IMG/VR virus record: IMGVR_UViG_3300029906_000160 | Strand: one strand, 5' to 3' | Length of the DNA stretch: 64,000 bases | From: a virus | Lineage: Duplodnaviria > Heunggongvirae > Uroviricota > Caudoviricetes | Shown: positions 1,072 through 47,870 of the stretch, in pieces | How the letters are laid out: every line of letters starts with the position of its first letter | Numbering within the stretch: position 1 is the first letter of the stretch | The notes under the pieces: model-generated | Databases searched by the model: none | Told to the model about the DNA's origin: nothing | Seen by the model: only the letters and a program-made list of their open reading frames with translations | Position numbers and translations under genes: made by a program

Positions 1072-2696
<1,625 letters not shown>

Positions 2697-5052: not shown

Positions 5053-5168
5053 ACTAAGCTCCTATTAAAATAAAGAACTCTCTATTTGCTTAGATTTATA
5101 ATCTCTCTAAATATTTGTTCTTTTAATTTCTAATACAAATATATAAAGAAATTTTTAATCTTACAAAT

Positions 5169-8160: not shown

Positions 8161-8255
8161 ATTTTTAAAATTTTATAAGTTATACAATGTGCTATAGTTG
8201 TACCTCAACTACTAATACAAAAATAAGTATAAAATTTTAAAAATACAAATAAATG

Positions 8256-10722: not shown

Positions 10723-10864
10723 TTTCTTCCAGCCAATCCATTCTAAATTTTCCCATTTTGGAAATTAAAGAAAAATTAAATAGTTAAACTTAAGTAATAA
10801 AAATGTTGCTTCAACGTGTTGATTTAAAAGATCAATGTTTTAATAAGATTATAAGCAACATTAG

Positions 10865-10937
10865 TGGAACTTTAGGGATTCGAACCCTAACTCTTAGAAT
10901 GCAAATCTAAAGTGCTAACCATTATCACTAAAGCCCC
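10865..10937 (-). tRNA. tRNA-Ala (UGC)
   Basis: cloverleaf by hand; G3:U70; anticodon loop UUUGCAU; T-arm GGGUUCGAAUCCC. Confidence 0.7.
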
Positions 10938-11035
10938 ATAACATTAAATATTTAAATTAAAAATTAAAGAATTGATACTAAATGCCGCTACATACGAATT
11001 ATCAAATTCCATTTATAGTATTATAAGTATCAAGA

Positions 11036-11109
11036 GAGCAGCATAGGTGAATCGAACACCCATATTCAGATTGGAAGTCTGACATAATAACCGTTATACT
11101 AATGCTGCT
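11036..11109 (-). tRNA. tRNA-Gly (UCC)
   Basis: acceptor AGCAGCA/UGCUGCU; anticodon loop CUUCCAA; T-arm GGUGUUCGAUUCACC. Confidence 0.7.
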
Positions 11110-11185
11110 AATAATAGAAAGGCTTAGGACTTCTTTTGGTAAGTTTTACTCAGGATCCTGGAGATTTTCCCTTTCCTTTCTATTG

Positions 11186-11258
11186 AGCCTTCTGTCGGAA
11201 TCGAACCAACAACCTGAACTTTACAAAAGTCCTGCTCTGCCTATTGAGCTAAGAAGGC
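11186..11258 (-). tRNA. tRNA-Thr (UGU)
   Basis: acceptor GCCUUCU/AGAAGGC; D-arm UAGCUCAAUAGGCAGAGCA; anticodon loop UUUGUAA. Confidence 0.7.
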
Positions 11259-11265
11259 GTATCTA

Positions 11266-11831
11266 TTATTTTGTATATTTCTTTCGTTCTTTTCTTCCAT
11301 TACCTTTATTAGCACCTTTATACGTAGCAGTTAAAGAATGACAATTTGGACATAATAGTATTAAATTTTCTTCAGAATTATTTAAATAATTTCCATCTAT
11401 GTGTTCGACTTCTAATGGAATTTTATTAGTATATGGATTTGTTTCTCCTCACCCACATCTAGCACATTTATTATTATATTTTTTAAACAAATAACACTTT
11501 AAATAAGAACTAACTTGATACTCGCCTTTTAATCCTGTTTCTTTTCCCTCTTTTCAACGTTTTTCTCATTCCTTTTGTTCTCAATTTTGTTGACATTGGT
11601 GAGAACAAAATTTTAAGTGAGCTTTATGTAAATTCTGTCCACAATTAAGGCAAACGCCATAATCTTTTTCTTTTTGAGTTGTTAATAAAATATCTAATTT
11701 TATTGCTCATCTTTTTATAGTTCGTCAATTAACATTATATAGTCTTCCTATTTCTGCATAAGAAAGTTGTTGAACGTTAATTAAATTGTTTAATGTTTCT
11801 TTGTCAATCATTTTAAAAATCTACTGTAATA
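11266..11831 (-). CDS. HNH homing endonuclease with N-terminal HTH; 5 in-frame TGA read as Trp
   Basis: CARCGW..LEVEHIDGN..NLILLCPNCH; HTH LSYAEIGRLYNVNWRTIKRW; unreadable in the standard code. Confidence 0.75.
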
Positions 11832-12152
11832 ACCATTATACTAAAAAGGCAATAAATGTTACTAATACGTAGCCAACGGAGCATTTTATGGTTGCACAAC
11901 CTGGAGCAGAATACATAATTCCACACAGTACATGTTAAATAAGTATTATAAGTAACATAATGGCTTGCGGGAGTTGAAGGTAACGCTCCTCCGTACTCAC
12001 GTTAACAGCGTGAAGTTCTACTTTTGAACTAAACTCCCAACAATCTACTTTATCCTACATACGAAAAGTAGTAAAACGTATCTCCATACGATGAGATTCA
12101 TGAGCGACAGGGCTTCAAGATGCTACGATTCACTCGTCAGTGACTAATTATT

Positions 12153-12227
12153 GAGCGCCAGTGGGACTCGAACCCACGTAGAATGGCTTATGAGACCATG
12201 CTGGGACCATCTCCAGTCTACAGCGCT
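12153..12227 (-). tRNA. tRNA-Met/Ile2 (CAU)
   Basis: acceptor AGCGCUG/UGGCGCU; anticodon loop CUCAUAA; T-arm GUGGGUUCGAGUCCCAC. Confidence 0.6.
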
Positions 12228-12261
12228 ATATTGTATCGCATAAATGTTTATTTATAATATA

Positions 12262-12720
12262 TCAAAGAGTACCTTTACTCTTTATATTATATTTTTTCAT
12301 TAAATCTTTATAAGAAAGCCCAAGATGTTTATCGCTTCGAATTTGTTTTATTAATTCATTAGAATAAATTCTATTTGCTAACGCAGATTTCTTTATTCTT
12401 ACTTTTTCTGGAATATCAAACATATTATCAGAATTAGTTCCAATTTCAATATTTTCCTCTTTATTGTTTAAAGAATTTCCATCTAAATGTCTAATAACCA
12501 TATCTTTTTCATAAATCTTTTCTTTAAACTTTTTATATGCTTGAAATCTATGATGATATACCTTAATATTCTTTCCATTTAACTTAAAAGAAAAATATAA
12601 ATAAGGTTGTTTTCCTCTAGTTCCAACAATGTTGCCTTTTGGACTTGTAACAATTCCATCTTTAGAAATTACATAACCTTTATTTCAAGCTAATTCTTCA
12701 TAATGATTATAATTTACCAT
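12262..12720 (-). CDS. HNH (HNH_3-type) endonuclease; 1 internal TGA read as Trp; annotated stop is itself TGA
   Basis: YHHRF..VIRHLDGNSLNNKEENIEIGTNSDN; track ORF 12262-12501 extends upstream through a TGA to an ATG at 12720. Confidence 0.65.
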
Positions 12721-12741
12721 TTTTGTTATATTTTTATATTG

Positions 12742-12900
12742 TGACTCCTGTGGGACTTGAACCCGACGACCCCATCATTAATTTCAGACAAGTCTGGATA
12801 GTTGGGCACGATCCAACGACCTCCAGTTCCCAAAACTGGCGTTCTACCAACTGAACTACATCCAGAAAGTGATGTGCTCTACCAACTGAGCTAAGGAGTC
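12742..12900 (-). tRNA. tRNA-Lys (UUU)-like gene interrupted in its anticodon loop by about 85 nt that contain a complete tRNA-Pro
   Basis: 5' half GACUCCU-UA-GCUCAGUUGGUAGAGC-A-CAUCA-CUUU; 3' half UAA-UGAUG-..UUCAAGU..-AGGAGUC-A; perfect 7-bp acceptor and 5-bp anticodon stems between the halves. Confidence 0.5.
12793..12865 (-). tRNA. tRNA-Pro (UGG), nested inside the tRNA-Lys-like gene
   Basis: C1:G72 acceptor CUGGAUG/UAUCCAG; D-arm GUUCAGUUGGUAGAAC; anticodon arm CCAGU-UUUGGGA-ACUGG; T-stem GUUGG/CCAAC; 73 nt. Confidence 0.65.
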
Positions 12901-13009
12901 GCTCTTAAGATACTTATTTTAAACCTAACTTATCAATTAATGTAAATATAAACTTGTAAGTATCTTATTTTATGTTAATCTTCAGTATTATAAATTTCTC
13001 TAGTTACTT

Positions 13010-13081
13010 TATTGATGTTGGAATCGAACCAACGAACTCTGCGTGACTCGCAAATGTTAAAACCACTTAACTAATCAATTG
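13010..13081 (-). tRNA. tRNA-like, anticodon region GUC (Asp?) with non-canonical position 33
   Basis: D-arm UAGUUAAGUGGUUUUAAC; T-arm GUUGGUUCGAUUCCAAC; acceptor mismatch at 1:72. Confidence 0.45.
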
Positions 13082-13143
13082 ATTTTATAAGTAACTTAAA
13101 CTAAACCTATAAGTTTGAGTAAATTCAGGGACTTATAGGTACA

Positions 13144-13485
13144 CTAAATTTTTTCAATTATAATTTTAATATTTCCCCAACTTTTTGGAATCACATCTTT
13201 AAATTGAGATTCCCAAAGTAAAGATTGATTTGTAAAATAATAATTACCATAAATAGAAGAAATATAATGTTTTATTTGACTTATTTGCTTTTCAAATTCT
13301 TTATATTTTTTATTCTTCTTACTTATCTGGCATTGAGCTAATTCTAGATTATATATTTCTTCTAAACGAGGTTTGATATCATTTATATAATCAGAATATT
13401 CGATTAAATATTTATATTGAGATACTGTATATTTAAGTTTAGTATCATGAACATAAGTAATTTTATATTTACCTAAAGTTTTCAT
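13144..13485 (-). CDS. hypothetical protein
   Basis: ORF track. Confidence 0.45.
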   Translation of the reverse strand: MKTLGKYKITYVHDTKLKYTVSQYKYLIEYSDYINDIKPRLEEIYNLELAQCQISKKNKKYKEFEKQISQIKHYISSIYGNYYFTNQSLLWESQFKDVIPKSWGNIKIIIEKI

Positions 13486-13501
13486 ATTTAAATAAATTTA
13501 G

Positions 13502-13575
13502 TACTCGGTGGGAGATTCGAACTCACCGTGAAGGGAATGAAAATCCCTCATACTAACCAACTATATGAACCGAGC
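13502..13575 (-). tRNA. tRNA-Glu (UUC)
   Basis: anticodon arm AGGGA-UUUUCAU-UCCCU; T-loop UUCGAAU; acceptor GCUCGGU/ACCGAGU. Confidence 0.55.
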
Positions 13576-13576
13576 A

Positions 13577-13612
13577 AAAAAGAGGAGAGCTAGAACCCTC
13601 CTCGAACTAACA
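13577..13612 (-). terminator. putative rho-independent terminator (minus strand)
   Basis: minus-strand GAGGAG-(10 nt loop)-CUCCUC followed by UUUUUU. Confidence 0.4.
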
Positions 13613-13918
13613 AAGAAATGTTAGCGATTCGAAATGCTACTTATTTCAACGAGCTAATTTAAAAGATTAGAGTTTTAAAATGTTATTATAAGTAGCATAA
13701 TATAATTTTTTTTAAATTTAACCTTTTAATGTAACCTCTTTATTAATTGGATCTCATACAACAAATCAAAGATTTGTTTTTAGTTAACCATCCACTAACA
13801 TAATTAACTGCTCCTGCATGAGTTGAATCTATTGATAATTTTATTCTGTCTTCTATACTGCTCGTCCAGTCACAGTTATGAGAAATGGATTACTAACCGT
13901 AGCTCCATGAAAGTCATA

Positions 13919-14365
13919 TCAAGTACCAGCAGTCATCTGAATAGCACTAGCTGGTCTATCGTCCTGAAGTCTACCTGACATGCTATATGCGAATGAGGTA
14001 TTTATTGGTACTGTTCCTGTCACTCGTGTTATCTTAATCCCACTGATTGCTTTAGTCTCATGCCTATAGTCAAGATCAGGAGATCCATTAACCATATAAT
14101 TAACTGGATTAGTAGTAGATATCTGATATTGTACTTGCATTTGTCCATCATATCCTATTAATCCTTGGAATAGAATATAGCAGTAAATCCTTGCTGCTAT
14201 ATCAGCCTCCTGTACTAACTGATTATTACTATAAGTACCCTTTATAGTAAATTCACTAGCATTTTTAATATCTTGATACGTAGGACATTGAGAGTAAGTA
14301 TTAGGATAAGTTACCTTATATCCGAAATTATCATATAAATACTGATAAGTTGCAATTTTACCCAT
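13919..14365 (-). CDS. hypothetical protein
   Basis: ORF track. Confidence 0.45.
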   Translation of the reverse strand: MGKIATYQYLYDNFGYKVTYPNTYSQCPTYQDIKNASEFTIKGTYSNNQLVQEADIAARIYCYILFQGLIGYDGQMQVQYQISTTNPVNYMVNGSPDLDYRHETKAISGIKITRVTGTVPINTSFAYSMSGRLQDDRPASAIQMTAGT

Positions 14366-14510
14366 GATACACCTCCTCCCTTTCCTTAATTTGAGATTGA
14401 TTAAACTTTGTAAACATAATGATAATTAATTTAATTGTCAAACAATAATTGCTATTACTAGTTTACCGATTTCCTCATTATGTCAAGCAATTACGATAAA
14501 ACTATAATAG

Positions 14511-14585
14511 ATTGAACTCACAGTAGGATTCGAACCTACATCTTCCTATAATAATATAGGTGTTCTGTCATTAAACTACATGAGT
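14511..14585 (-). tRNA. tRNA-like element (T-arm UAGGUUCGAAUCCUA); identity unresolved (6-nt anticodon loop by hand)
   Basis: acceptor ACUCAUG/UGUGAGU with G:U pairs; canonical T-arm. Confidence 0.4.
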
Positions 14586-14690
14586 TAGTAAATTTCTAGT
14601 TACTAAATTATAGCAGAGTATTTAGTTATAGGATAATTCAGGAATAGTAGTATATAAGTTACTTACTTCTTGATTAGTTCTATTATCTAA

Positions 14691-15350
14691 TTATTTAATT
14701 AATACTTCATCGATTAAACCATAAGATTTTGCTTCTTCTGCATTAAACCAACAATCTCTATCTGCATTCTCTACAATTTGAGAATATATAATTCCTGTGT
14801 TCTTAGAAAGTATTTCATATAGAGTTTGTTTGTATTGTTTAATTTCTTCGTAAGCAATTTTTATATCTGATTCTTGAGTTCCTGGAGCAATTCCACCCAT
14901 AGGTTGATGAATCATTATCTTACTATGTGGTAATGCGAATCGTTTACCTTTAGTTCCACTAGATAATAAAACTGCTCCCATAGATGCTGCTAATCCAATT
15001 GCATAAGTTTCTACATTTGGAGATATATACTGCATCATATCATAAATAGCAAGTCCATCAACTATCGAACCTCCAGGACTATTTATAAATAATTTAATCT
15101 CAGTTTTATCATCCATTGTATTTAAATACAACAACTGAGAAGTAATAATATTAGCAACATCTGCGTCAATGTCTGTTCCAAGAAAGATAATTCTATCAGC
15201 CATCAATCTTGAAAATATATCCATAGTTGCTACATTATTTCGTCTTTCTTCTACAATAGTTGGACTTATAATATCATTAGTAAACTTTTGATAATCCCAC
15301 ATTTTATGAGATCCTACTCGCGAACTCAGAAACTTTTCGTAATCTTTCAT
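14691..15350 (-). CDS. clpP: ATP-dependent Clp protease proteolytic subunit ClpP
   Basis: catalytic-Ser region GLAASMGAVLL, His region MIHQPMGG; 219 aa; no TGA. Confidence 0.9.
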   Translation of the reverse strand: MKDYEKFLSSRVGSHKMWDYQKFTNDIISPTIVEERRNNVATMDIFSRLMADRIIFLGTDIDADVANIITSQLLYLNTMDDKTEIKLFINSPGGSIVDGLAIYDMMQYISPNVETYAIGLAASMGAVLLSSGTKGKRFALPHSKIMIHQPMGGIAPGTQESDIKIAYEEIKQYKQTLYEILSKNTGIIYSQIVENADRDCWFNAEEAKSYGLIDEVLIK

Positions 15351-15693
15351 TATATAAATATATTATTTTATCTTTTTTAACATCATAATATTCTGCATCA
15401 ACAGGATTGTAATGTCCCCAACATATAGTTACATCTGGAAACAAAGAATTAAATTCATTAAGTTCTTTACCTATAAATTCTTTAAATCCTGTATTATTTG
15501 CATGAATTTCATCAACATGAATTACAAACAAATTAATATCTAACTTATCGTAATAACATCTAAGTTTTATATCACGATATTTATTTGTAATTCTATTACA
15601 CAAATTCTTTATAGAAAATTCTAAAATTCTTCTAGCTTGAATTTCAGCCCAATCACGTATTTTATTTATTATTTTAAATATAAATTTTAGCAT
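15304..15693 (-). CDS. hypothetical protein
   Basis: ORF track; promoter-like motif 35 nt upstream. Confidence 0.45.
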   Translation of the reverse strand: MLKFIFKIINKIRDWAEIQARRILEFSIKNLCNRITNKYRDIKLRCYYDKLDINLFVIHVDEIHANNTGFKEFIGKELNEFNSLFPDVTICWGHYNPVDAEYYDVKKDKIIYLYNERLRKVSEFASRIS

Positions 15694-15744
15694 ATTTATA
15701 ATGATACTATTTGACTGAAGACTTATTAAATATTGTAAGTATCA

Positions 15745-16954
15745 GTCGTATATTTTATTTTATAAGCTTAATGTTATAATATTCACAGAGAGAATTTAAA
15801 ACATTTCTTTTAATGTTAAATATTTCAAATAGTTTCTGTTTTGTCTTATATTTACTTCAAGCTTCTAATAAGTCTTCTTTAGAAACTATAGGATTTCCAT
15901 TTTCATCTAATATAGACCTCAATTTTAATCATTTAGCGTTACATTCGCGAGAACAACAAACACTTTTTCTATCTTGAGGTTTATATTCTTTCCCACAAAC
16001 GATACAAATTCGTTTTGGAACAGGTTGTTTATTATTTAAACCTAACTCTGTTTTAGTAGATGGAAGATTATATTGTCTACATCATCTTCTAACAGTATTA
16101 TCTGTAACTCCAAATTGTTTAGCGATATTACGAAAACTTCTAGTTTGAATTGCTTCTTTTAATCATTCTTTTGTCGGATATTCTAAATTTGCGTTTTCAT
16201 TATTCTTTAATCTAGATTTTTGTAAAGTATCTAATCTAGATTTTGTACTACATTCTTTAGAACAAAAATCAGATGTACCAGAAAACTCTTTACCACAATA
16301 CTTACATTTCTTAATTTTGTGTTTTACTATAAGCTGATTTTCTTTCTTTATATTTTTACCACAATAATTATCTGTTATTGCATGACAATTTGGACACAAT
16401 AGTTGTAAATTTTCAATTCTATTATCAGTATTAATTCCATTAATATGATGGACTTCTAATGGAATTTGTTGTCCTTCTCATTCTGTTTTATTACATTTTT
16501 CACATTTTCATTCTTTTAATCCAAATTCCACTAATCTAATTTTTAATTTAGATTTTTGATAATCTGAATTTTCTTTAAATATATCTTCTTTAGTATATTT
16601 CTTTCTAACTTTTTCTTTTGTATTATCTATACAAAAATGAGAAGTATCAATATTATATTTTTCTATAATTTTGTTAATACGAGAATAATTTGTATTTGTC
16701 GCTCTAATTCCTAAATTTTTACAAACATCGTTTATATTCTTACATTTTGGAATTAAATCAACAATAATTTGTTCATATTCTTGTTTAGCTTTTTCTCGTT
16801 CGATTATCTTTTCTCTATCTTTTTGTCATTTAGTACCAAGATAATAAGCTACTAATGATTTTGTAGAATTACATTTTGATGCAATTTGAGTATAACTTAA
16901 TCCTTGATTATGTAATTCTTTAAATAATTTATATTTTTCTTCAGCTTCAGTCAT
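15745..16954 (-). CDS. HNH homing endonuclease with multiple HTH domains (about 402 aa); 7 in-frame TGA read as Trp
   Basis: LEVHHINGINTDNRIENLQLLCPNCH; C-terminal HTH ..NTVRRWCRQYNL with W=TGA; track shows only a 78-aa fragment (16163-16399). Confidence 0.75.
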
Positions 16955-17013
16955 TTTATAAAGAAAAATTAAAAATTAATAAAATCTTTTATATTTTAAT
17001 CTAAACAATATTC

Positions 17014-17088
17014 GTAGATCTGGCTGGGCACGATCCAGCAACCTTCTGAGTCAAAGTCAGATGTTCTAAACCAATTGAACTACAGATC
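17014..17088 (-). tRNA. tRNA-Gln (UUG)
   Basis: acceptor AGAUCUG/CAGAUCU; anticodon arm UCUGA-CUUUGAC-UCAGA; T-arm GCUGG-AUCGUGC-CCAGC. Confidence 0.65.
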
Positions 17089-17240
17089 TATTACCATATT
17101 TTTAGTTTGATTTGAATTCCAAACTAAAAATATTATTAAAAATGAAACTTAATTAATTTTGTAAAGTACAACCAAAGAACTAAGAAATTATTAATTATAT
17201 TATATTGTAAGTTTCATTTTATATATTTCAACGTTACTAT

Positions 17241-17313
17241 TACATGATATTGGAATCGAACCAATTACATTTTGTGCCTTAAGCAAATGCTCTACCTAAT
17301 GAGCTAATCATAT
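17241..17313 (-). tRNA. tRNA-like (anticodon loop region UUAAGGC; Leu?)
   Basis: acceptor AUAUGAU/AUCAUGU; canonical D-arm UAGCUCAUUAGGUAGAGCA; T-arm UUGGUUCGAUUCCAA. Confidence 0.5.
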
Positions 17314-17345
17314 TAGTTTTATAAGTAACGTATATTATCAATTAA

Positions 17346-17465
17346 AATGCTACTATTGTACGTGCTCTAACCATCTGAGCTATACGCAAAATGCGCAACC
17401 GGACTTGAACCGATGACCACGAGATTACGAATCTAAAACTTTGATTTTGTAAGTAGCAATTATTT
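17346..17465 (-). other. tRNA-derived modules in non-canonical order (T-arm AUCGGUUCAAGUCCGGU upstream of D-arm UAGCUCAGAUGGUUAGAGCA)
   Basis: hand alignment; no complete cloverleaf. Confidence 0.35.
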
Positions 17466-17800
17466 TATTCTGCCTTAATTATCTTTTTATCTTCATCAAG
17501 TTTATAGGGAGCTTTTTCCTCTTTATTAAATGTAGAAGCTGTTTCCATAAACTGATCAAGAAAATAACTTTTTAAATATCCGAAATGTGGATGAGCTTTA
17601 TATTTATTACAAAGCCAAGAGTAAACATTATCGTAATTTTGATTTACAGATCTTTTAAGTTTTCTATCTATTATGCGATAATCCTTATTCAGATCTTTAT
17701 CAACAGGAGCAACATTATAATATTCTGTAAAGTCTTTAGCCTCCTGCTTATGAGAATCTCGCATTGATTCTCTCATCGGCATATTATCAAAATCCTGCAT
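17465..17800 (-). CDS. hypothetical protein
   Basis: ORF track. Confidence 0.45.
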   Translation of the reverse strand: MQDFDNMPMRESMRDSHKQEAKDFTEYYNVAPVDKDLNKDYRIIDRKLKRSVNQNYDNVYSWLCNKYKAHPHFGYLKSYFLDQFMETASTFNKEEKAPYKLDEDKKIIKAE

Positions 17801-17884
17801 AATTAAATAAAATTAAAATGTTACTTTATAATAAAACTTGCCCGCAACAAGTCACGTAAACCATTCCGTCTTTCCAGAACATAT

Positions 17885-18235
17885 TCTAGAAGTTGGATTC
17901 GAACCAACAATTATTTAATAGTTTTATAAGTAACATAATTAATAAAAGTCTATTGACACTTTATACGTTGCTCTACTAATGAGCTTTATTGATAATTCAA
18001 TAAAAGGATTTGCACCTTTAACCTACGGGTTACAAGCCAGATTTTGTTTTATAAGTGTCAAATTATAAGTCTAATGATACATTTATACTTATGCTCTACC
18101 ACTGAGCTAATTAATCAATTTTTTGGCGATTAATACTGGATTTGAACCAGTTACCTTAAGTTCCCCACAATAGTTTTATATGTATCATATTTGGGAGTTA
18201 AAAGATATTCGAAATCTTTCCTTTTCAGTCACAGT
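17885..18235 (-). other. array of tRNA modules (3 canonical D-arms, 4 T-arms) interleaved with promoter-like motifs; order and acceptor complementarity suggest permuted or fragmented tRNA genes
   Basis: minus strand: T-arm(ACUGG-UUCAAAU-CCAGU)+AUUAAUC..GAUUAAU+D-arm(UAGCUCAGUGGUAGAGC); repeated pattern. Confidence 0.35.
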
Positions 18236-18291
18236 GAAATATGCTAGCCAATTACACCATTAACTCCATCTGCAAATATATAACAAAAATT

Positions 18292-18630
18292 TTATTCTTC
18301 CAAATTATTTTCAAAATTTATTTTTCCAACACAACTAACAAAAGTTGTATGAAATTTATCATCTTGAAAAATATAATAATTGTCCAAATAAGAATACGCA
18401 ACACCAACAAGTGTTTGAAGTCGTCCTTCTATTTTAGATTTTTCTCCAAAATGTTTTGCTGCTTCTTTTAGACATTCTGGAAATTCTTCTCCATCTAACA
18501 TTGTATCATATAATACAATATTTGGATCATAAACAGATATTTCTTCTCCTTCATCAAAAGGATTATAAAGAGAAGAGGGTCTATTTCTAAACCACTCTTC
18601 TCTTCGTAATATGTATTCAGGATCTCTCAT
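18292..18630 (-). CDS. hypothetical protein
   Basis: ORF track. Confidence 0.45.
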   Translation of the reverse strand: MRDPEYILRREEWFRNRPSSLYNPFDEGEEISVYDPNIVLYDTMLDGEEFPECLKEAAKHFGEKSKIEGRLQTLVGVAYSYLDNYYIFQDDKFHTTFVSCVGKINFENNLEE

Positions 18631-23200: not shown

Positions 23201-23278
23201 ATTTGTTAAAACTTAAAATTAAAAAATCTCTTATTTTTATTAACAAATATATGACAAAATTTTTAAATTTCCAAATAT

Positions 23279-27980: not shown

Positions 27981-28628
27981 TTATAATCTGATTTTATAGT
28001 AGTTAAGACGACTTTGTAAATCATCAATAGGATAATGTTCCTTTATATAAGAAATTTTTGATTTGAGCTTATCTTCATAATGAGGATCTGTAGCATATCT
28101 GTTTCCATTAATGTCTACAAAGTTTTCAAGTAGATCTTCTATTGTTTTGGATGGAAGATAATTATCAACAAGTAAAGCCAGATAAGGTATAACACTATCA
28201 TTAGGATTACTGAACTTATGCTGAATCTCACTGATGCTATGGCCGTCATAAGCACCAACATTCCAGACAGAATTAGTTCGAAAAGCCAAACCTTTGGTAC
28301 CAAAATGGCTTTCAACTTCTCCTTGAGCAAGCGTAAACGAAATCGGGATTCCATATTTTTCACAATTTTCTACTAATATAAGAGCACGTAATCCTGAATT
28401 AGGTGCAACTGAATCTATATAATATTGAGTAAGATCAACAAGATCAGATTTAACACCTTGATAAGAGGTTTGTAATTCTCTTATATATTCAGTAGCTGTA
28501 TCATATCCAGTTTGTTCTTCTTGTTTTGGCATTGACCATGTAAACGCAAGTATTGCGAATACAGCAACTACAACAAGACAAATTGAATTTATGATACTAT
28601 TCAATGTTACTTGATGTTCTATGTTCAT
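27981..28628 (-). CDS. membrane-anchored lysozyme-like / lytic transglycosylase-like protein
   Basis: N-terminal TM segment; AQGEVESHFG..GAYDG resembles the SLT catalytic region. Confidence 0.4.
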   Translation of the reverse strand: MNIEHQVTLNSIINSICLVVVAVFAILAFTWSMPKQEEQTGYDTATEYIRELQTSYQGVKSDLVDLTQYYIDSVAPNSGLRALILVENCEKYGIPISFTLAQGEVESHFGTKGLAFRTNSVWNVGAYDGHSISEIQHKFSNPNDSVIPYLALLVDNYLPSKTIEDLLENFVDINGNRYATDPHYEDKLKSKISYIKEHYPIDDLQSRLNYYKIRL

Positions 28629-29540
28629 AATTAAAATTTCTAGTTAATATAACAACTCCAAAAGCATCAGTTCTTTCAGAAACGAAATCAAAATTTTCTG
28701 CTATTTGAACATCTTCGTTATCTGTATTGAAACAATAAACTAATGCATCATCATCCGAGCATTTATTTAATTTAGCTTTGAGTTCTCTTACTGTTAACAT
28801 TACAATAATATTTTTGCTGTTTCACATAAATCTCTGAAGCAATTATGAAAATCTTTAGCCATTTGTTCTGAAGGGAATGATAACAATCTATGGCTTGTAT
28901 TCCACCTTACAACAGAAATAGGTTTGTTAAACATATCGTGTCTGCATATTATACAAAAAGGTTTCTCAAATTCCTCCTCATTCCCAACCCAGGCTTTTCT
29001 AAGTTGTCTTAACTGCATAAGAGCAAGAAAGGCTTCTGCTTCCTTTTTGGAAATACAGACATTTTTGTCAGTCTTCTTATCTCTTTGAACAGGGCCACTA
29101 TAGATTCCTATATTGGAAACAGAGTCAATATAAGCCTCTCCCTTTTGTTTAGGATACCTCTCACAGAACTTCTCCCAACTTCTTGGAGGTCCTTGCTTCT
29201 TTTCTCTTACAATATATGTGTCCCCATCCTTGATGAGTTCACAATTGTCTGGTATTTGAATTTTTACTTCATTCATAACTATTAAAGATTATTAAATTCT
29301 TCTTGTAATTCCTTAACCTTATTTTTCAGGGTAGATAATACCTCTTCCTGAAACTTTGAAGCGTCAATATAATTAAGAACTTCTCTTTCTTCGAATTCTT
29401 TTGGAAAACCAGAACTATCATAATTTTGTATAATAATACATCTAATTTTAGTAAGAGTTTCCCACCTGTTTATTGCCTCATGTAAAGATCTTATTTCTTT
29501 AAGAATTCTTTGACCTTTCGCTAATTGTTTTTCTGTCATA

Positions 29541-29697
29541 ACTATTCTCTATAATTAGGCCATATATAAACCATATTCATTTCTGGATCAAAATCAACAG
29601 AATCTATAAAATATCTATCGCCTCCAATACAAATTGAAAGAGATTTGTCATCAATCTTGTTGAGTTCATCTATGAATTCTTGTACTGTTGCTATCAT
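29541..29697 (-). CDS. small protein, TVxEL family (MIATVQEFIDELNKIDDKS..)
   Basis: 52 aa, below ORF-track cutoff; stop abuts next ATG. Confidence 0.5.
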
Positions 29698-29699
29698 AA

Positions 29700-29897
29700 C
29701 TATTCTTCTTTAAGTTCAACTGGTTTATCTTCCCATGTGAGGTCTCTACCGATAAGTTTCTTAATAGAACTTTTTGGTAAAATAATTGGTGCAGATAATC
29801 TCACATACATAGGACAAGTCCAATAATCCAAAACTCTATAAGGCTCTTGAGGAAATATTTTCTCAGTACCATCTTTATCTACTGCTACCCATGCCAT
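29700..29897 (-). CDS. Trp-rich 65-aa protein (paralog of 30056-30247)
   Basis: MAWVAVDKDG..WEDKPVELKEE vs MWIVRDKCGELW..WEDEEPRELILK. Confidence 0.5.
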   Translation of the reverse strand: MAWVAVDKDGTEKIFPQEPYRVLDYWTCPMYVRLSAPIILPKSSIKKLIGRDLTWEDKPVELKEE

Positions 29898-30054
29898 ATT
29901 ATTTCATTGGATTATATATAAGATTGATTTCCTCCCAAACAGGACTCGCTTCAACATCATTTATATAGATGTTTTCTTTAATACCAATTACACAAACTGT
30001 TTTGGATTTGTCATCAATCTCTTCAAGTTTATCTATTAATTCTTGTACTGTCAT
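29898..30054 (-). CDS. small protein, TVxEL family (MTVQELIDKLEEIDDKS..)
   Basis: 51 aa; TAA immediately adjacent to downstream ATG. Confidence 0.5.
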
Positions 30055-30055
30055 A

Positions 30056-30247
30056 TTACTTCAGTATTAGTTCTCTTGGTTCCTCATCCTCCCATTTGAC
30101 TTCAGAAAAGAAACTTTTATCCATAAGTCTAATCAGTGCTATTTCACCTGTAGAGCACCATTGGTCTTTAATTTTTTTAGGTTTTTCTACATGAAGCCAT
30201 AATTCACCACATTTATCTCTGACTATCCACATAGCTATTCCTCCCAT
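30056..30247 (-). CDS. Trp-rich 63-aa protein (paralog of 29700-29897)
   Basis: ORF track; paralogy. Confidence 0.5.
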   Translation of the reverse strand: MGGIAMWIVRDKCGELWLHVEKPKKIKDQWCSTGEIALIRLMDKSFFSEVKWEDEEPRELILK

Positions 30248-31591
30248 TCTACCTTTATGGTCTTTATATAGTCCTTGAATAGTTCTGTGTCCTTCAATGC
30301 AATCTCTTCAGATTCATAGAGGTCACTTTTGCATATTATTGCCCACCCCTTTTTCTTTTCAGGGAGCATCATAAGGTCATAGCAACAAGGGGAAGTAATT
30401 GATATTCCATCCTCATTATAGTGTAAGACAATCTCACGCCCATTAACCTCAACAAGGGCCACTATTGGGGCGGTACTTCCTTTCACATCAAAGCAGAGGA
30501 TTCTTACCTTTCGTCCCTCTCTTGTACAAACTGGATGCCCTGCCTTTGCAAGTTCAATATCAAATGGTTTCATAACTATTTATTTTCTGGAGTTGCTAAA
30601 TAAGTTTTAAAGCAAAATGCATAACCTGCATCAAATGCTTTGTCTACAAGTTCTTTAATGTTAATTTTTTTGTTTTTAAATTGTGAGAGAAGATCGTTCT
30701 TAACGTTCTTCATCTCTTTAACTGTTGGTATCATAATATTTAATAATTAATTTCAAATTAAAAATGGCACTATAAATAAAGCTCAAAATTATTTAAACTA
30801 ATATTATAAGTGCCATTGATTATGTCAGTATGGTATGTACGCAATATTTCTATTTAAAAAGAGAGTAAGAATCTATTTCCAACTATGATCAGTAGTTTCT
30901 AGAAAATTCTATTAGATTCCCTAAGAGTTGATAGGTGCTACGCGTTTGCAGAGCTATGCTAATGGTATACAGGACCAGTATTACTGGATGTATATTACTC
31001 TCTTTTAATTAGTACTCCTGAGAGGATTCAAACCTCTGTTACCCTTTTAGATGAATTTATATTCGAGGCGTCCTTGATCACTAGACGACAGGAGCATAAA
31101 CTAGTTTATAACGGAAAACTAGCAACCCGATCCATTTATATAGAACTTGAATAAACTACCAGTGTAACGCTTTGGATGCGTGTTGATTTCTGGATGAACA
31201 ACAACCTAACTTGTCTCGTCAATACGCAACGCTTCTATATTCACCCAAAGAAGTAAGGGCTAATTAAGTGCTGAGTACAGCTTACCTATATTAACATAGT
31301 TCGCGACCTATATTATCCTTAATTAGAATTCTTTATTTAATAGATTCTTGATTTTTTCTACAATACTTTGTTTTCCATTCTTTAATTTAAAATCTTCATT
31401 AAATATCATACCTAAAGTAAATATAAATGGAAATAAAAAATTACAAAATGGAATAAACAGAAAAACTAATCCAATTAAATACACCCACAATGGAGCTTTA
31501 AGTGGCTCTCCATTACATTCTCTTGTACTCTTTATATAGAAAAACCATATCCAGAAAATTAGAGATAAGATGGTAGTAAATGGATAAAACA

Positions 31592-32383
31592 TTACTTCTG
31601 GAGATTAAGCATCAGAGCTGCTTCTTCTCCCGTTACAACCTTCGGCAAGGTACCGTCCCATTTTTCAATCCACTGCTGCTGAAGAATTTCTGGAGTAAGA
31701 GCCTTTGTTCTAAGTTCATTAGCCTTCTTTTCAGCTTCTGCGGCAACTATCTTTTTCTCAGCTTCGGCTTTAACTATCTCAAGTTCTCGTTCTACACGAA
31801 GAGCATCTTGAGTAGCTTTATCTTTCGCCGCAATTGCTTCTTGAATTGAATTTGGATATGTAAGTCCAGTTGTAAGTCTTTCTAGATAAAAATTCTCATT
31901 TTCGAGTTCGTGACGAAGTTGATTTTCTATTGCAGTTTCTACAGAATCTCTATTAGAGGTAATTTCATCTGGAGTAAATTTATTTACTTGGATACGACAT
32001 GCATTAACTACAACTGTATAAAGTGTAGTGTTTACTATATCATCAAGATTAAGGCGATATTTCTGAAATATTTCTGGAGTTTTACCATCAATAATTTTTA
32101 TAGATACTGTTGGATCCATAGTAAACGCTAAACCTCCTTTTGCATTGACTGTAAATGCTGGATAATCAACAGTCTGAACAAAAGTTGGATATTCATATAC
32201 TTTAGTTGTCAATGGATTGAAAATCACCCAACCAGTAACAAGAGAAACCTCATCAACACCCTTATTAGAGCCATATAAATTTACCTTAATACCTTCATGA
32301 CCTGCATCAATACGAGTACATGAGGAAAAGGTAATAAGCATTGCAAGAATAGCAACAAAAATAAGTTTAATGTGATTCTTCAT
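31592..32383 (-). CDS. SPFH/band-7 (prohibitin/HflKC-like) lipoprotein
   Basis: signal peptide plus lipobox (LITFSSC); SPFH-domain pattern; C-terminal coiled coil. Confidence 0.6.
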   Translation of the reverse strand: MKNHIKLIFVAILAMLITFSSCTRIDAGHEGIKVNLYGSNKGVDEVSLVTGWVIFNPLTTKVYEYPTFVQTVDYPAFTVNAKGGLAFTMDPTVSIKIIDGKTPEIFQKYRLNLDDIVNTTLYTVVVNACRIQVNKFTPDEITSNRDSVETAIENQLRHELENENFYLERLTTGLTYPNSIQEAIAAKDKATQDALRVERELEIVKAEAEKKIVAAEAEKKANELRTKALTPEILQQQWIEKWDGTLPKVVTGEEAALMLNLQK

Positions 32384-33158: not shown

Positions 33159-33296
33159 ATTATATAATTTAATGATTAGACAAAATAAAAAACTTCAGCG
33201 TGCATCACTGCAGACTGGAGGACTTCCACTTATATGTGGATAAGTTAGTTAATCTTAGGTATAACTTCATTCTAACTTAAAAATTAAAGAGTATTG

Positions 33297-33611
33297 TAGC
33301 TCCGATGCGATTTGAACGCACACTTCCACTGCTGGAAAAGGGATTTTAAGCAAAAATACTTGATTCTTGGACTATCTCATTACCATGCGTATAAACGTTT
33401 AGGTATCGGACGCTCTAGTTGGTTATTAAGAAGACTAAACTTCTCCAATAGTCTCTACACGTTCAGTAATTGTAACTACTGCTTCGCTCGCCCTCTGTGT
33501 TTTCTCACTTCAGCCGAATTCATCCGATTATGCGATATAGATTTCTCTATAAAGGGGACTTCTGTCTAATATTGACAGTTCCCTCGTGTCTACCTATTCC
33601 ACCACGGAGCC
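33297..33611 (-). tRNA. tRNA-Leu (UAA) interrupted by about 229 nt in the anticodon loop (probable group I intron)
   Basis: 5' exon GGCUCCG-UGGUGGAAUAGGUAGACACG-AGGGA (cf. E. coli tRNA-Leu ..UGGUGGAAUCGGUAGACACAAGGGA..); 3' exon CUUAAAA-UCCCU-long variable arm-GUGCG-UUCAAAU-CGCAU-CGGAGCU-A. Confidence 0.55.
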
Positions 33612-33631
33612 TTATTTAATATTAATTTATA

Positions 33632-33772
33632 AGTAATACATCTGAATAAGCTGTACTCTTCTTATAAACTAAAGCAATTTCTTCATTTCCTGATATATTA
33701 TTTACAACTGTAGTGTTATCTGGAAGATCCTTTATAAATTCTTTTAGTTCTTTAACTGTCATAATCTTCAAA
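33632..33772 (-). CDS. small protein, TVxEL family (MTVKELKEFIKDLPDNTT..)
   Basis: 46 aa, not in ORF track. Confidence 0.45.
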
Positions 33773-34274: not shown

Positions 34275-34412
34275 TTACTCAATACAGATAAAGGTTTCTT
34301 CATCTCTAACTACAGTCACAGAGGACGATTCCAGTTTATATACATTAAATATTTTAACTGGAAGATTAGCAGGATACTTAGATAACTGCTGAATAAGTTG
34401 TTTTACTGTCAT
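34275..34412 (-). CDS. small protein, TVxEL family (MTVKQLIQQLSKYPANLP..)
   Basis: 45 aa, not in ORF track. Confidence 0.45.
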   Translation of the reverse strand: MTVKQLIQQLSKYPANLPVKIFNVYKLESSSVTVVRDEETFICIE

Positions 34413-34466: not shown

Positions 34467-35211
34467 TAATCCTATATAGTTTTTATTTATATGCTTAGTT
34501 AATTTTTCTAAACTAACAAAATAACTAAATTGATTAAAGAGTGTTTAGTAAAACTCTGAATTTAAAGAATTATAATGAAAAGAGCTATGCGAAACTATAA
34601 TTAAAAGGCATAGTGGGAGTAAAGAACTCTTTGAGTGTCTTCACTACTTTTGAGAAAAGATTTTTAATTCCGTTTATTTTTGGAGATATTTAAAGTAATC
34701 ACTTACTGCATAAAACATATACCAAATCAATAAAATCAAATCCAAGCATCCCCAATGCAAAGATAAGAAAAAGTTTTAAATATACAAATAAAAATGGATA
34801 CTAAGTATAAATAATTCGCCTGCCTTTCTAATTTCAAAATTGGACGCGCTATATAGCTATTTTATAAATATACTTAGTATCCAAATAAAAATGGAAGATC
34901 TGACTGTATGTTTAAGTAACCCAAAATGCTAGTTACATAACGCATAATCCCTACAGCTAGGCTCTATTCTCTTAAATAGACTTTAGCACCAGATCTTCCA
35001 AAAAATTGGTTATAAGGTTACCAACCCAGCCTAGGCAACTTTAATCTAGAATTCAGTTGCTTCGTTACTTCAGACGCCAAATAATATTGTCTGAGAGTCA
35101 CCTCTATCTTTAATATGTATATAAGGAAGCTGAGGAAGCTATTATACACATCCGGATCTTTATATACTTCTCCTAGTATAATCCGGCTATACTAAGAGGA
35201 CTTATAAAAGA

Positions 35212-36475: not shown

Positions 36476-36589
36476 ACATATACATTTTTTATATTAAAAT
36501 TTGGATATTTCAATTTTTATGCGTATATTTGCTGTACATAAATAAACTAATTATAAACCTTAATCTATTTATATATGGACGAAAATAAA

Positions 36590-45363: not shown

Positions 45364-47805
45364 TTAATTTCCCATATAAAAATTATATCTTTCATAGACT
45401 TTTTTCAGCTGTTCTTCAGTTAGCTGTTCTTTAAAGGCTAGGAACTTATAGAATTTAAAGGTTGAAGAACCGTTAGATCCATCACTAGCAGTTCCAGGAG
45501 CAACACATCCTATGTATTTGGAAGTGTTAGTAACTCTACTATCACCTACTATAGCTACAGTAGTTCTTTTACCTCTAAGTGATGCAGCTGTTATTGTAGT
45601 GTTCTCCTGTCCATTTATATAGCATACAGAACCTTCTGGAACATCATAATAATATGCTAACTCAGTTCCTTCTTTGGATTCATTTATATCAATATTACCT
45701 AAATTTCCCTGACAATAGTATTCTGCTATATTATTGAGAGTGTTAGGAGCTTCAAATTCCATAATTAAGGTATTCCAAGTATCTCTATTAGTACTACCAT
45801 CTTTATTTAGAATATTGAAATAAGGAGAGCCATCCATACCTTTAAACTGGAAGAAATCAAAGAAGTTAGGAACTTGTTCAAATACAGTCTTTTCATTGCT
45901 GTAGAGAGCTAAAACTGACGTATTATAGTCTTCTCCTTTAAAAAGAACATATCCAGGATAATCAACAGAAACAAGTCCAGTATCTTCGTCTTTAGTAAAG
46001 ATAGTGTGGCTTACTATATTATCGCCAGCTGAGCTATATAGATGAGCGTCTACACTGGCACTATATAAATCATCTCCTTTAAAATTGGTTCTAAATGGAG
46101 GATAAACAACAATCTTATCATCCTCAAAAATAGGGTTTACTTTCTTTTGAACATTCCAAGCATATGCACAAGAAGATGAATCAATTTTATTTTTATTGAT
46201 TAGAACTGCGGGAATACTTTGCTCGTTACTCCAAGAAGTTAAATCTCCTACATTAGGATCATACCAAGCCCAACCAACATGAGTAGACAAGTCAACTACA
46301 GGAAAACAGATTATATAGAAATCAGTATTTGTTGCTATAAAATTTCCTTCAGCGTCTTTATCACAGAAAGAGCTTGGAATTTGGATATAAATATTATTAT
46401 TCTCAGTAAGAGAATGAACATTCGTTAAATCTATAACATTCATTCCTGAAGACAAAGCGTAATAAAAATCAACATTTTCCCCCGTATAACCGTCATAACA
46501 AGAAAATGATGCATCTGTAGAGAAGGTTCTACCAGAAGGAGTAGAAACATAAACACTAATTTTAGTACCCAATCCTCTAAAAGAAGACCCTGGGCAGCTA
46601 AAAAGTATCATGTTATAAAGACTATTAGTTGGACTTCCTGGAGGAGTAATTTTTGTTATATGATAGATTCCGTCTGATGGAGTATCATATTCACACCTTG
46701 AAGATATAGAACTAAAAATATTTGTAGCTCTTGCTACATTACTCAACTTATTATAATTCTTCAGTTGTGCATACAAGCCATTACCTGAATGGTCACAAAG
46801 CTGCCAAGCGCCAAATCCATAAGAATCTACATTAAAAGCACCATGATAATCTTTAGAAACATCAAAATAACATGCTGCATTGGGTAGTACATTCTTATTA
46901 TAATAATCTATGAGATAGTCAAGAGGAAGATCTCGATTTCATAGAATAAATCTGCTTACACAGTTAAGGTCATAATCAGGATCAAAAGAAATTACATTGT
47001 TATTTGACCCCTTTGAGCCTTTAGATAAAATTCCATTTGAAGAAATTGTTGACCATTCTTTAGAATTATAAATCAAAACTCCAGAATTAGGAACTGAGCT
47101 ATAGTTACCAAAAGAAAGTACAGAAGAGACACCTTCAACTGGAACTCTGATTTCAGTGCTATATGCTGAAACGCTGACAACCGTAGGAATAGTTAGGTCA
47201 GGAGCTAATGTTGAAACATTAGAAGGATTAATATCCTTGAAAACACAGATAACAGAGAACCCTGAATCAGGTTTGGTTCTCGCAGCAGGTAAACTGAGAG
47301 AAGCATAGTTGCTAGGTAAATTTATCTTACTGTTCTCATCACAGATAGGAAACTGTTTAAAATATAGATAACTTCCAGTTGGATCCCAAGCAGGATCTGA
47401 AGGTTCAAAAACATGTCTAAAGGTCGTTTTCCCTGAAGGAAGAATAATATTACAAGTTCCTCCAAATACTTGAATCTGTTCACCAGTATTATCTACTATA
47501 TATCCATTGCAATAATATGGATCAGTGGGAAGATTACCTATTGAAGTAAACTGAAAGAGAACATCTGAATTGAGTCTACTATATGTGGAAGTAATTGGCA
47601 AATTATATCCATTAAATGACTTGGAAAGTACATGAATAGAAATAGAATCAACAGATTGCTCTGTTATCTCAAAAGTGTCATCTGCTACTACTTGTGAAAG
47701 ATCAAATACATAATTGTTAGCATCACTAACATTCATATCTGAAGCGTCTACATCAAGAACAGGGGCAGGAAATGAATTATTAAGTAAATTACAAAAAGTA
47801 CTCAT
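45364..47805 (-). CDS. tail fibre protein (about 813 aa) with a single in-frame TGA at 46939-46941
   Basis: track ORFs 46939-47805 and 45364-46776 are in the same frame; 54 sense codons between them; no ATG or RBS for the downstream part. Confidence 0.6.
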
Positions 47806-47870
47806 AACTAAAACAATTTTATAAAAATATTTCCCCTCTAATAGAAACTACTAAAAGAGGGGAATATTAA

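Follow-up and report, generated by a model that had tools for sequence, protein, structure and literature searches.

Very short open reading frames (ORFs) crowd one strand of this phage locus, and the question is whether they encode proteins and, if so, whether neighboring proteins form functional pairs. A sequence-only reading had proposed at least six paralogous TVxEL proteins, some alternating with Trp-rich proteins in tandem, coupled two-gene modules that recall toxin-antitoxin or anti-defence cassettes. The stretch of DNA analyzed here (the window) is 64,000 nucleotides long, and the best reading of its source is a ∼177-kb phage of Bacteroidales with a hyperplastic accessory-gene array. 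The phage GroEL is 45% identical to the GroELs of 167 to 179-kb B. thetaiotaomicron phages, and the host lineage is Bacteroidales. We refer to the TVxEL proteins as family A and to the Trp-rich proteins as family W. All of the small ORFs described earlier exist, although they lie on the minus strand and some positions were slightly off. The frame of the locus was drawn from comparative maps and from Pfam and PHROG hits of the flanking genes:

27981..32383, minus strand, frame of the hyperplastic locus
27981-28628, minus strand, conserved flank, TM-anchored glucosaminidase (Pfam, PHROG)
31592-32383, minus strand, conserved flank, SPFH/Band_7 lipoprotein (Pfam, PHROG)

The variable small-gene array lies between the lipoprotein and glucosaminidase genes and is transcribed in the order 'A4', a 112-aa gene, W1, A3, W2, A2, an 85-aa gene, a 158-aa gene and A1, followed by the glucosaminidase. 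Maps of the window and of related loci (L099-L102, L011 and L001) show that the gene content between the conserved flanks differs while the frame is kept.

Family A was delimited with two profile HMMs, a full one and a distant-only one from which the window's own sequences and their close orthologues were left out. The following genes were assigned to it:

28597..28800, minus strand, A1, 67 aa (HMM 2.9e-8 distant-only, 1.9e-15 full)
29542..29697, minus strand, A2, 51 aa, closest paralogue of A3 (HMM 3.4e-12 distant-only)
29899..30054, minus strand, A3, 51 aa, a MTVQELIDxL mini-protein (HMM 9.6e-16 distant-only)
33622..33762 from ATG (33771 from TTG), minus strand, A5, 46 aa (HMM 2.1e-3 distant-only, 7e-10 full)
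34275..34412, minus strand, A6, 45 aa (HMM 3.2e-8 distant-only)

The full HMM places all five at 7e-10 or lower, the next ORF following at 0.37. Exactly six ORFs in the window start with a TVxEL-type motif, and the profile HMMs unite five of them in one family; the remaining one, counted earlier as a paralogue, belongs to another:

30576..30734, minus strand, 'A4', a 52-aa conserved gene, not family A (orthologues in related phages)

We excluded 'A4' from family A because it matched neither HMM and a profile comparison with hhalign returned a probability of 2%, with TVKEM alone aligning. Its orthologues in L099-L102 are 53 aa long and 65 to 69% identical.

Pairwise alignment carries the proposed paralogy part of the way: A2 and A3 are clear paralogues (Smith-Waterman z = 16), W1 and W2 reach z = 5, and A1, A5 and A6 are marginal (z of 2-4). 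The DNA of A2 and A3 is ∼88% identical over the first ∼50 nt, after which similarity is lost. An A5-type profile aligned with the main family A over the N-terminal 22 residues only (hhalign, 91.5% probability and E 9e-7), and both A5 and A6 fit the family motif and fold pattern in their N-terminal half only. Orthologues were found for A1 (P0001, P0003, P0005 and P0006), A3 (P0009, P0043 and others) and A6 (P0022), and A5 has many of 46 to 48 aa that start at MTVKEL. A1 overlaps both of its neighbors: it starts on the stop codon of the 158-aa gene (TAATG) and at its own 3′ end runs 32 nt into the glucosaminidase gene.

A search of 1.84 billion proteins retrieved 181 representatives of family A at E < 1e-3 (cluster representatives at 50% identity), nearly all of 40 to 65 aa and matching from residue 1. 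Members are about 40 to 66 aa long and strongly acidic (median pI 4.3, median net charge about -7). Their common pattern is an N-terminal helix with T-V-x-E-L-I-x-x-L, then D-K-S/T, a β strand and two further strands, with a highly variable C-terminal hairpin. In the AF2 model of A3 (pLDDT 91.1) the helix spans residues 3-11 and the strands residues 19-22, 31-36 and 42-47; on this model the conserved MTVQELIDxLxxIxDKSxxV segment is the predicted helix plus first strand, that is, the core of family A. Three PHROGs of unknown function, phrog_20944, phrog_11155 and phrog_5861, were matched by 39, 22 and 12 of 59 family members, respectively; they are small profiles (48-67 positions) matched from position 1 and comprise the same kind of MTVxELI mini-protein. 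The proteins of the window match PHROGs weakly, with A2 at 2.8e-6 to phrog_20944 and A1, A5 and A6 at E ∼0.005-0.014 to other small PHROGs. A tblastn search with A3 found no homologue in cultured phages.

The second family has two members in the array:

29700..29897, minus strand, W2, 65 aa, MAWVAVDKDG...LPKGSIKKLIGRDLTWEDEPVELKEE family (HMM 1.9e-32)
30056..30232, minus strand, W1, 58 aa, MWIARDK...EVKWEDEEPRELILK subfamily of family W (hhalign to the W2 subfamily)

Two starts can be read for W1, MWIVRDK at 30232 or MGGIAMW at 30247, the latter overlapping the upstream gene. That the Trp-rich ORFs are paralogous was borne out. W1 and W2 are distant homologues whose subfamily profiles align with 97% probability and E 1.1e-10 (hhalign), W1 scores 3.4e-3 with a family W HMM lacking W1-type sequences, and the landmarks W / KPxR / W / WEDxP of the family pattern (MAWVAVDKDG ... 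WEDEPVEL) are present. Orthologues of W1 are P0091, P0103, P0106, P0107 and P0350-352, of which P0350-P0352 were new to the retrieved set and came from a single-sequence search with W1.

Family W comprises at least 662 protein clusters (90% identity) and 516 IMG/VR viral loci. Almost all derive from phages or prophages of Bacteroidales, and the family occurs in genomes of Bacteroides, Segatella, Muribaculaceae, Alistipes and Rikenellaceae. The proteins are about 58 to 70 aa long and mostly β. Across hundreds of phages that are otherwise mosaic, the N-terminal hairpin and the C-terminal helix-strand block stay almost invariant, and between them lies a middle of variable length. AF2 models W2 with six short strands and one short helix (pLDDT 90.5). 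In the search for cultured-phage homologues, tblastn with W2 found two unannotated faecal contigs only.

Such short ORFs could be chance frames, or their conserved segments could be DNA or RNA elements rather than proteins, the more so as codons 2-5 of family A (ACA GTA CAA GAA, after ATG) are conserved in the DNA too. We regard this as having next to no probability. First-order Markov simulations of the window gave a mean of 0.05 ORFs starting with the TVxEL-type motif and a maximum of 1 in 100 runs, against the six observed. Invariant residues use many synonymous codons (TCN and AGY for Ser, CTN and TTR for Leu), and dN/dS between close W pairs lies below 1, at ∼0.15 for the C-terminal block and 0.19 for the middle (few alignable pairs, 12 of them for the middle); both observations show that selection acts on the proteins. 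Both AF2 folds are confident, hundreds of homologues have matching length, and many public assemblies have orthologues annotated as genes. At the level of codons the chance-frame or DNA-element reading is thus already refuted, and by the same sequence criteria the A and W ORFs are genuine, translated, paralogous small genes, multiplied in this region. We also rejected the idea that the conserved W termini are DNA-level recombination elements, as their synonymous sites vary freely. Shine-Dalgarno pairing is little used in Bacteroidales; because the host belongs to this lineage, the missing Shine-Dalgarno sites are no argument against these genes.

Reading frames differ between neighboring genes, each of which ends in TAA or TAG, and a fusion of adjacent ORFs by read-through or frameshift was rejected on these grounds. 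The phage genome may recode TGA, which would be without effect on the small ORFs because none of them ends in that codon.

Are A and W, then, partners? A cognate module (a toxin-antitoxin-like pair, or an inhibitor together with a partner or regulator) that was tandemly duplicated and is translationally coupled would account for the alternation W1-A3-W2-A2 with its spacers of 1-2 nt at the W1/A3, A3/W2 and W2/A2 junctions. In the related contigs L101 and L102 the A3 orthologue follows directly on a W2-type gene, the two overlapping by 4 nt, and A and W occur within 5 kb of each other at 10 of the 81 W-centred loci and 7 of the 17 A-centred ones. The genes of type II toxin-antitoxin pairs are likewise small, adjacent and co-directional, with stop and start codons that abut. 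The abutting W/A junctions are real, but the whole operon is alike: stop and start codons abut at all other junctions too, including the recurrent TAGTTATG and TAATATG, and because every other boundary is equally tight, the spacing is not particular to A-W pairs.

Comparison across genomes speaks against the module in several further ways. A abuts W in none of 110 W-centred loci (81 viral and 29 genomic), where the neighbors of W are mosaic, and in A-centred loci W is absent or 2-3.5 kb off. Close relatives carry W without A (W-W-W in L011, W-W in L001), the A3 orthologue of L099 and L100 is preceded by an unrelated 59-aa gene, and A1, A5 and A6 of the window have no W neighbor. Nor did the array arise by duplication of a W-A unit: the split between the W1 and W2 subfamilies, which have separate sets of orthologues, is ancient, but A2 and A3 are much closer to each other. 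Among 352 retrieved proteins there are at least seven A-A tandem fusions and no A-W fusion; a W-W fusion is present in L102. Pfam, NCBIfam and PADLOC searches with A and W gave nothing beyond noise and no toxin, antitoxin or defence family, and, in contrast to type II toxin-antitoxin pairs, partner adjacency is not conserved, there is no homology and neither fold is alike. A toxin-antitoxin or otherwise coupled pair was therefore rejected on synteny, missing fusions and missing family matches. The coupled A-W module of the sequence-only reading is already contradicted by comparative genomics, with gene order and content as the evidence, and we consider it highly improbable.

Searches for a known function returned little else. 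PHROG matches of A and W were to unknown-function families only, among them weak matches of W to phrog_1972 and phrog_22292. PDB searches by sequence and with Foldseek gave no acceptable relative of either family, anti-defence proteins included. A match of A1 to NARF (PF20299; E 0.017) was treated as chance because only 1 of 59 family A members shows it, and PDB sequence matches to the KwaB N-terminus, ribosomal L7/L12 and a phosphodiesterase (6cpt) were short or incompatible in secondary structure. An Sm-like fold for W was likewise discarded, as the best PDB matches have TM scores of 0.2-0.3 (Foldseek) and are not meaningful.

Among predicted structures, in contrast to the PDB, W has relatives. 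Foldseek places the W fold, at TM 0.5-0.84, in many uncharacterized proteins of unrelated phages, including T4-like phages, Pseudomonas phages and the crAss-like cr4_1. The BFVD phage proteins of 60 to 120 aa with this fold (A0A8S5VMA5, A0A8S5NCN2 and, from cr4_1, A0A7M1RTK8) match with probability ∼1.0 and TM 0.6-0.84; they are unannotated and their E-values are modest, at 1.6e-3 or weaker. Such a spread of modeled folds is what a generic accessory domain of phages would be expected to show.

Family A resembles the small acidic phage inhibitors (AcrIIA4, phi29 p56 and Ocr-type DNA mimics) in size, in negative charge, in having a helix and a three-stranded sheet and in its place among accessory genes. 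AcrIIA4 is built as α1-β1-β2-β3-α2-α3, and p56 as a small β-sheet plus helix. The likeness is one of general properties, as these inhibitors show no sequence or Foldseek similarity to family A.

We put the chances at about even that the locus holds two independent families of stand-alone binding mini-domains with a binding or inhibitor role. As we picture it, A and W are unrelated families of small, soluble, independently folding proteins that are multiplied in an accessory array, each gene being a separate cistron in a tightly packed, co-directional operon. Each protein would most likely bind another macromolecule, acting alone or as a homo-oligomer; the occurrence of A-A and W-W but not A-W fusions is a hint, from the protein sequences, of homo-oligomers. 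The target would most probably be a host protein that is taken over or a host defence that is countered, and host modulation or counter-defence is the probable function. Duplication, exchange of the 3′ part of a gene, and gene gain or loss, rather than a partnership of A with W, would be the source of new specificities. No positive selection was seen in the variable middle of W (dN/dS as given above); selection in the few alignable close pairs is purifying and thus gives no sign of an arms race.

That purifying selection would also suit proteins that serve the phage itself, as small adaptor or regulatory subunits of its replication, transcription or assembly machinery. The near-invariant termini of W would fit a conserved partner, and their extreme conservation could equally reflect a partner of phage origin. 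However, presence, absence and copy number of A and W vary between close genomes, which, together with the mosaic neighbors, is typical of dispensable accessory genes, and in the examined loci neither family is linked to replication or structural genes. We hold this phage-internal role to be unlikely, though worth keeping in view.

For family A, a comparison with the internal proteins of T4 also suggests itself. The polymorphic internal protein (IP) locus of T4-type phages has reportedly been treated by Comeau and Krisch and by Bair and Black. By this comparison the family A proteins would be packaged, their N-terminal MTVQE(L/F)IDE acting like a capsid targeting sequence (CTS) that steers a polymorphic cargo to the prohead, to be injected together with the DNA like the T4 anti-restriction protein IPI*. 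The T4 CTS is MKTYQEFIAE (PMC8442874), and A2, starting MIATVQEFIDE, shares T-x-Q-E-F-I-x-E with it; 6 of 9 residues are in common for A2 and 5 for the consensus MTVQELIDEL, a match too short for statistics. The layout is T4-like as well: several paralogues that share a conserved N-terminus but differ in unrelated C-terminal sequence lie together in a large phage's hyperplastic locus.

Several features of family A are at odds with such a signal. A Glu equivalent to that of the CTS cleavage site is found in only 24 of 59 members, and an (L/I)-x-E site is not conserved. Further copies of the motif lie inside A-A tandem fusions, where they lack the Met, so the motif belongs to the domain and is no N-terminal signal. 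In the AF2 model the helix is packed against the sheet (pLDDT 96), and removal of the motif would leave ∼35-40 residues. The proteins are very acidic, whereas the T4 internal proteins are described as 'highly basic' (PMC8442874), and their genes lie among accessory genes, not structural ones, the structural module being outside the window. Finally, family A is not restricted to T4-like phages: its viral contigs range from 4.8 kb to 380 kb, the smaller ones being mostly 24-75 kb, so a T4-specific scaffold core is not needed. We therefore judge the packaging of family A by a CTS-like signal very doubtful, and its T4-like route through the prohead into the host just as implausible. The chances are similarly slim for the broader analogy, in which MTVQE(L/F)IDE would be a portable targeting or recombination module that delivers tiny acidic cargo to the capsid or another phage machine for co-injection. 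If true, this analogy would carry the T4 'internal protein' strategy over to phages of Bacteroidales.

Both families are reasonable candidates in screens for host-takeover or counter-defence factors of Bacteroides phages, of which almost nothing is characterized. Their candidacy rests on confident predicted folds, on defined conserved and variable parts and on a well-delimited locus. As a rule, the plastic regions of large phages hold arrays of paralogous small ORFans, and the finding is in this respect mostly an ordinary one. Its value is modest: it does away with a tempting but wrong toxin-antitoxin reading and defines two sizeable, unannotated mini-protein families of gut Bacteroidales phages, absent from Pfam and with no solved structural neighbor.

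Putative signals for transcription were also seen in the window. A6 is the first gene past a tmRNA gene, and a match to a promoter pattern lies upstream of both:

34758..34788, minus strand, match to the Bacteroidota-type promoter pattern TTTG-N-TAnnTTTG (consensus match only)

In keeping with a Bacteroidales host, this pattern is enriched in the window, with 14 occurrences where 5.0 are expected, and none of 100 shuffles reached 14.

Every ORF described in the sequence-only reading lies on the minus strand of the window (GC 30%), and the coordinates given there proved correct to within 1 to 14 nt. The array comprises members of family A (MTVQELIDxL mini-proteins) and family W (Trp-rich proteins), interspersed with other genes, and is listed here in transcription order, followed by the features upstream of it.

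30734-30576, minus strand: 'A4' (label only), 52 aa
30573-30235, minus strand: 112-aa gene
30232 or 30247 (alternative starts) to 30056, minus strand: W1
30054-29899, minus strand: A3
29897-29700, minus strand: W2
29697-29542, minus strand: A2
29539-29282, minus strand: coiled-coil gene, 85 aa
29276-28800, minus strand: 158-aa gene
28800-28597, minus strand: A1
28628-27981, minus strand: membrane-anchored glucosaminidase
31592-32383, minus strand: SPFH/Band_7 lipoprotein, with several small membrane proteins coming next
33762-33622, minus strand: A5, ~4 kb upstream of the array, same orientation
34412-34275, minus strand: A6, ~4 kb upstream of the array, same orientation

The abutting stop and start codons noted at the A-W pairs are present. 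However, all junctions of the operon are tight, formed by TAGTTATG, TAATATG, TAATG or overlapping genes, and abutment is therefore an operon-wide property and not one of the pairs. The junction strings are reused on the minus strand of 28500-30800 (TAGTTATG four times, TAATATG twice), a pattern compatible with termination-reinitiation coupling throughout the operon.

A scan of the window found exactly six ORFs starting M-x(0-3)-T-V-x-E/Q-L/F/M, against a chance expectation of 0.05 (mean; maximum 1) in 100 first-order Markov simulations of the window. Pairwise statistics by themselves clearly back two relationships only, A2-A3 (z = 16) and W1-W2 (z = 5); support for A1, A5 and A6 is marginal (z 2-4), and 'A4' shows no significant similarity to the other A ORFs. 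Family-level sequence evidence settles the question of repetition. When 1.84 billion representatives were searched exhaustively with the profile, 181 family A proteins were found at E<1e-3, nearly all of 40 to 65 aa and with the profile match beginning at residue 1. An independent HMM built solely from the distant relatives found in this search recovered A3 (1e-15), A2 (3e-12), A1 (3e-8), A6 (3e-8) and A5 (2e-3), and the full family HMM placed all five at ≤7e-10, with the next of 6043 ORFs at 0.37. For the A5 subfamily, the match to the main family has 91.5% probability and is limited to the first 22 residues. The W1 and W2 subfamilies are homologous (97% probability, E 1.1e-10), in agreement with the paralogy proposed for them. 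Thus, five of the six supposed TVxEL paralogs stand, while 'A4' is ruled out as a member (hhalign 2% probability); the gene is nevertheless conserved, with orthologues of 53 aa in relatives.

The A and W ORFs, as well as 'A4', are genuine genes. Public gene calls hold orthologues of every one of these ORFs, on contigs of up to 177 kb; codons vary freely at invariant residues (Ser by TCN and AGY, Leu by up to six codons); and close W pairs have a dN/dS of ~0.15 over the C-terminal block and of 0.19 over the middle segment. AF2 models are confident for both A3 (pLDDT 91.1; a helix at 3-11 and three strands) and W2 (pLDDT 90.5; six strands and one helix, all short). Family A proteins have median values of 52 aa in length, pI 4.3 and net charge ~-7, with a conserved segment, M-T-V-Q-E-L-I-D-x-L-x-K-I-E/D-D-K-S-x-x-V, that corresponds to the helix, turn and first strand; the remainder is highly variable. 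The A2 and A3 genes are ~88% identical over their first ~50 nt and lack any sequence relation beyond, which suggests replacement of the 3' part downstream of a conserved 5' module. The two ends of family W proteins are nearly invariant, MAWVAVDKDGxExIF..KPxR..W at the start and LPKGSIKKLIGRDLTWEDEPVELKEE at the end, with a middle segment between them that varies in length and sequence; the W domain is also found as part of larger proteins and in a W-W fusion (L102, a related viral contig, 3573-4004, 143 aa). In the related loci L025-L030 (4986-5081), W2-type genes are seemingly truncated after 31 codons, yet the tblastn match is still full length. A 112-aa ORF of contigs L099 and L102 (L099 3025-3363) carries an A-type domain behind an N-terminal hydrophobic segment.

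While the sequence-only reading was largely correct as observation, its interpretation of A and W as a coupled, duplicated two-gene cassette fails on several independent counts, namely synteny, fusions and subfamily ages. In 81 W-centered viral loci, no A gene abuts W; 10 of them have an A gene less than 5 kb away, always 1-2 kb upstream, and W is flanked by a mosaic of small, unrelated genes (Zn-ribbon, YopX-like, TM peptides and others). An A gene was present in one of 29 W-centered genomic loci, 1.3 kb from W, and in 17 A-centered loci W was either missing or 2-3.5 kb downstream. Close relatives share the SPFH/Band_7 and glucosaminidase frame and differ in the gene content between: the array reads W, W remnant, W, W in L011 and W, W in L001, both without an A gene; W1, two unrelated genes and then an A3 orthologue in L099 and L100; and a W2-type gene (the W-W fusion in L102) immediately preceding the A3 orthologue in L101 and L102. 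Among 352 retrieved proteins there were at least seven A-A tandem fusions and no A-W fusion. Finally, the W1 and W2 subfamilies are ancient and A2 and A3 much closer, which means that duplication of a W-A unit is not how the alternation arose. A and W are two independent small accessory-protein families that have expanded at a hyperplastic locus in the genome of a large Bacteroidales phage.

The pairs had also been likened to toxin-antitoxin or anti-defence cassettes, a kinship that profile searches did not bear out: neither family is present in Pfam, NCBIfam or PADLOC, and the PHROG counterparts (phrog_20944, phrog_11155 and phrog_5861 for family A; phrog_1972 and phrog_22292, weakly, for family W) are of unknown function. 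Sequence and Foldseek searches of the PDB gave nothing meaningful for either family, and the W fold recurs in uncharacterized proteins of many unrelated phages (TM up to 0.84; Foldseek, BFVD). We considered whether the family A N-terminus could be a capsid targeting sequence like that of the T4 internal proteins, MKTYQEFIAE (PMC8442874), which A2 (MIATVQEFIDE) resembles; the organization is likewise reminiscent of the polymorphic T4 locus in its conserved N-terminus, unrelated remainder, several paralogues and plasticity. This has a low probability, the evidence being mostly against it: just 24 of 59 members have Glu at the position equivalent to the cleavage-site Glu, the motif also occurs internally in A-A fusions and forms a well-packed structural helix in the AF2 model, family A is acidic whereas the T4 proteins are basic (PMC8442874), and its viral contigs span 4.8 kb to 380 kb, the smaller ones mostly 24-75 kb. 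A conserved scaffold with a variable surface, the acidity of family A and the turnover of accessory genes at the locus all hint that A and W proteins would most likely act as binding mini-domains, stand-alone or homo-oligomeric, with host proteins as putative targets, whether for takeover or to counter defences. Phages commonly encode small proteins of this general type (PMC11323111).

Several further features of the window are listed here.

1071-2696, minus strand: GroEL-type chaperonin (PHROG E 1e-150)
4971-5063, minus strand: tRNA, anticodon UCA, which would read the opal codon (ARAGORN label SeC)
5630-6430, minus strand: ADP-ribosylglycohydrolase
10864-18266, minus strand: array of 12 further tRNA genes (ARAGORN)
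33296-33611, minus strand: tRNA-Leu(UAA), 229-nt intron in the anticodon loop
34430-34753, minus strand: phage-encoded tmRNA (ARAGORN), tag peptide ending ...MPFNYSFA*

The small ORFs lack strong Shine-Dalgarno sites, as first observed, and Shine-Dalgarno pairing is little used in Bacteroidota. Their absence is expected given the host signals from GroEL, promoter motifs and the distribution of family W, which is almost confined to Bacteroidales genomes, one being a Segatella copri chromosome. The phage GroEL has its closest counterparts in Bacteroides thetaiotaomicron phages of 167-179 kb (45% identity to DAC16-23 and SJC03). The Bacteroidota promoter pattern TTTG-N17-23-TAnnTTTG has 14 matches in the window against 5.0 expected, a number reached in none of 100 shuffles; sites include 5136-5167, 18273-18304, 23244-23275, 34758-34788 and 36500-36531, and several copies have in common the longer consensus TTTGGAAnnnTAAAAnTTTnnTnATATATTTG. 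The ~590 bp upstream of 'A4' (30735-31322) contain no ORF of at least 30 aa and no match to the pattern.

The tmRNA gene lies between the promoter match at 34758-34788 and A6, contains a G3:U70 pair in its acceptor stem and gives a full-length match to Rfam RF00023 at 44 bits (gathering score 47; E 8.5e-16). The interrupted tRNA-Leu(UAA) was detected by aragorn -i and overlooked by the default scan; no group I intron matched its region in Rfam at E<=1, and the one phage record that the region matches by megablast (crAss-like cr118_1, 55 bp, 92.7%, ~33406-33460) aligns within the intron. With TGA read as sense, far more of the window falls in stop-to-stop frames of 150 codons or more (from 0.13 to 0.72 at 56-64 kb), and ORFs such as those at 45364-47847 and 47871-49898 are merged or extended; TGA may be recoded in part of the phage genome. 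The small A and W genes all end at TAA or TAG. L001, a related phage contig of ~104 kb, carries a TROVE (Ro60-like) gene at 7872-9284, just downstream of the syntenic glucosaminidase; a 470-aa ORF of the same length in the window (45364-46776) has no Pfam or PHROG match. For one tRNA of the array, at 14514-14585, ARAGORN reports an irregular anticodon loop, yet Rfam calls it a tRNA (49 bits).
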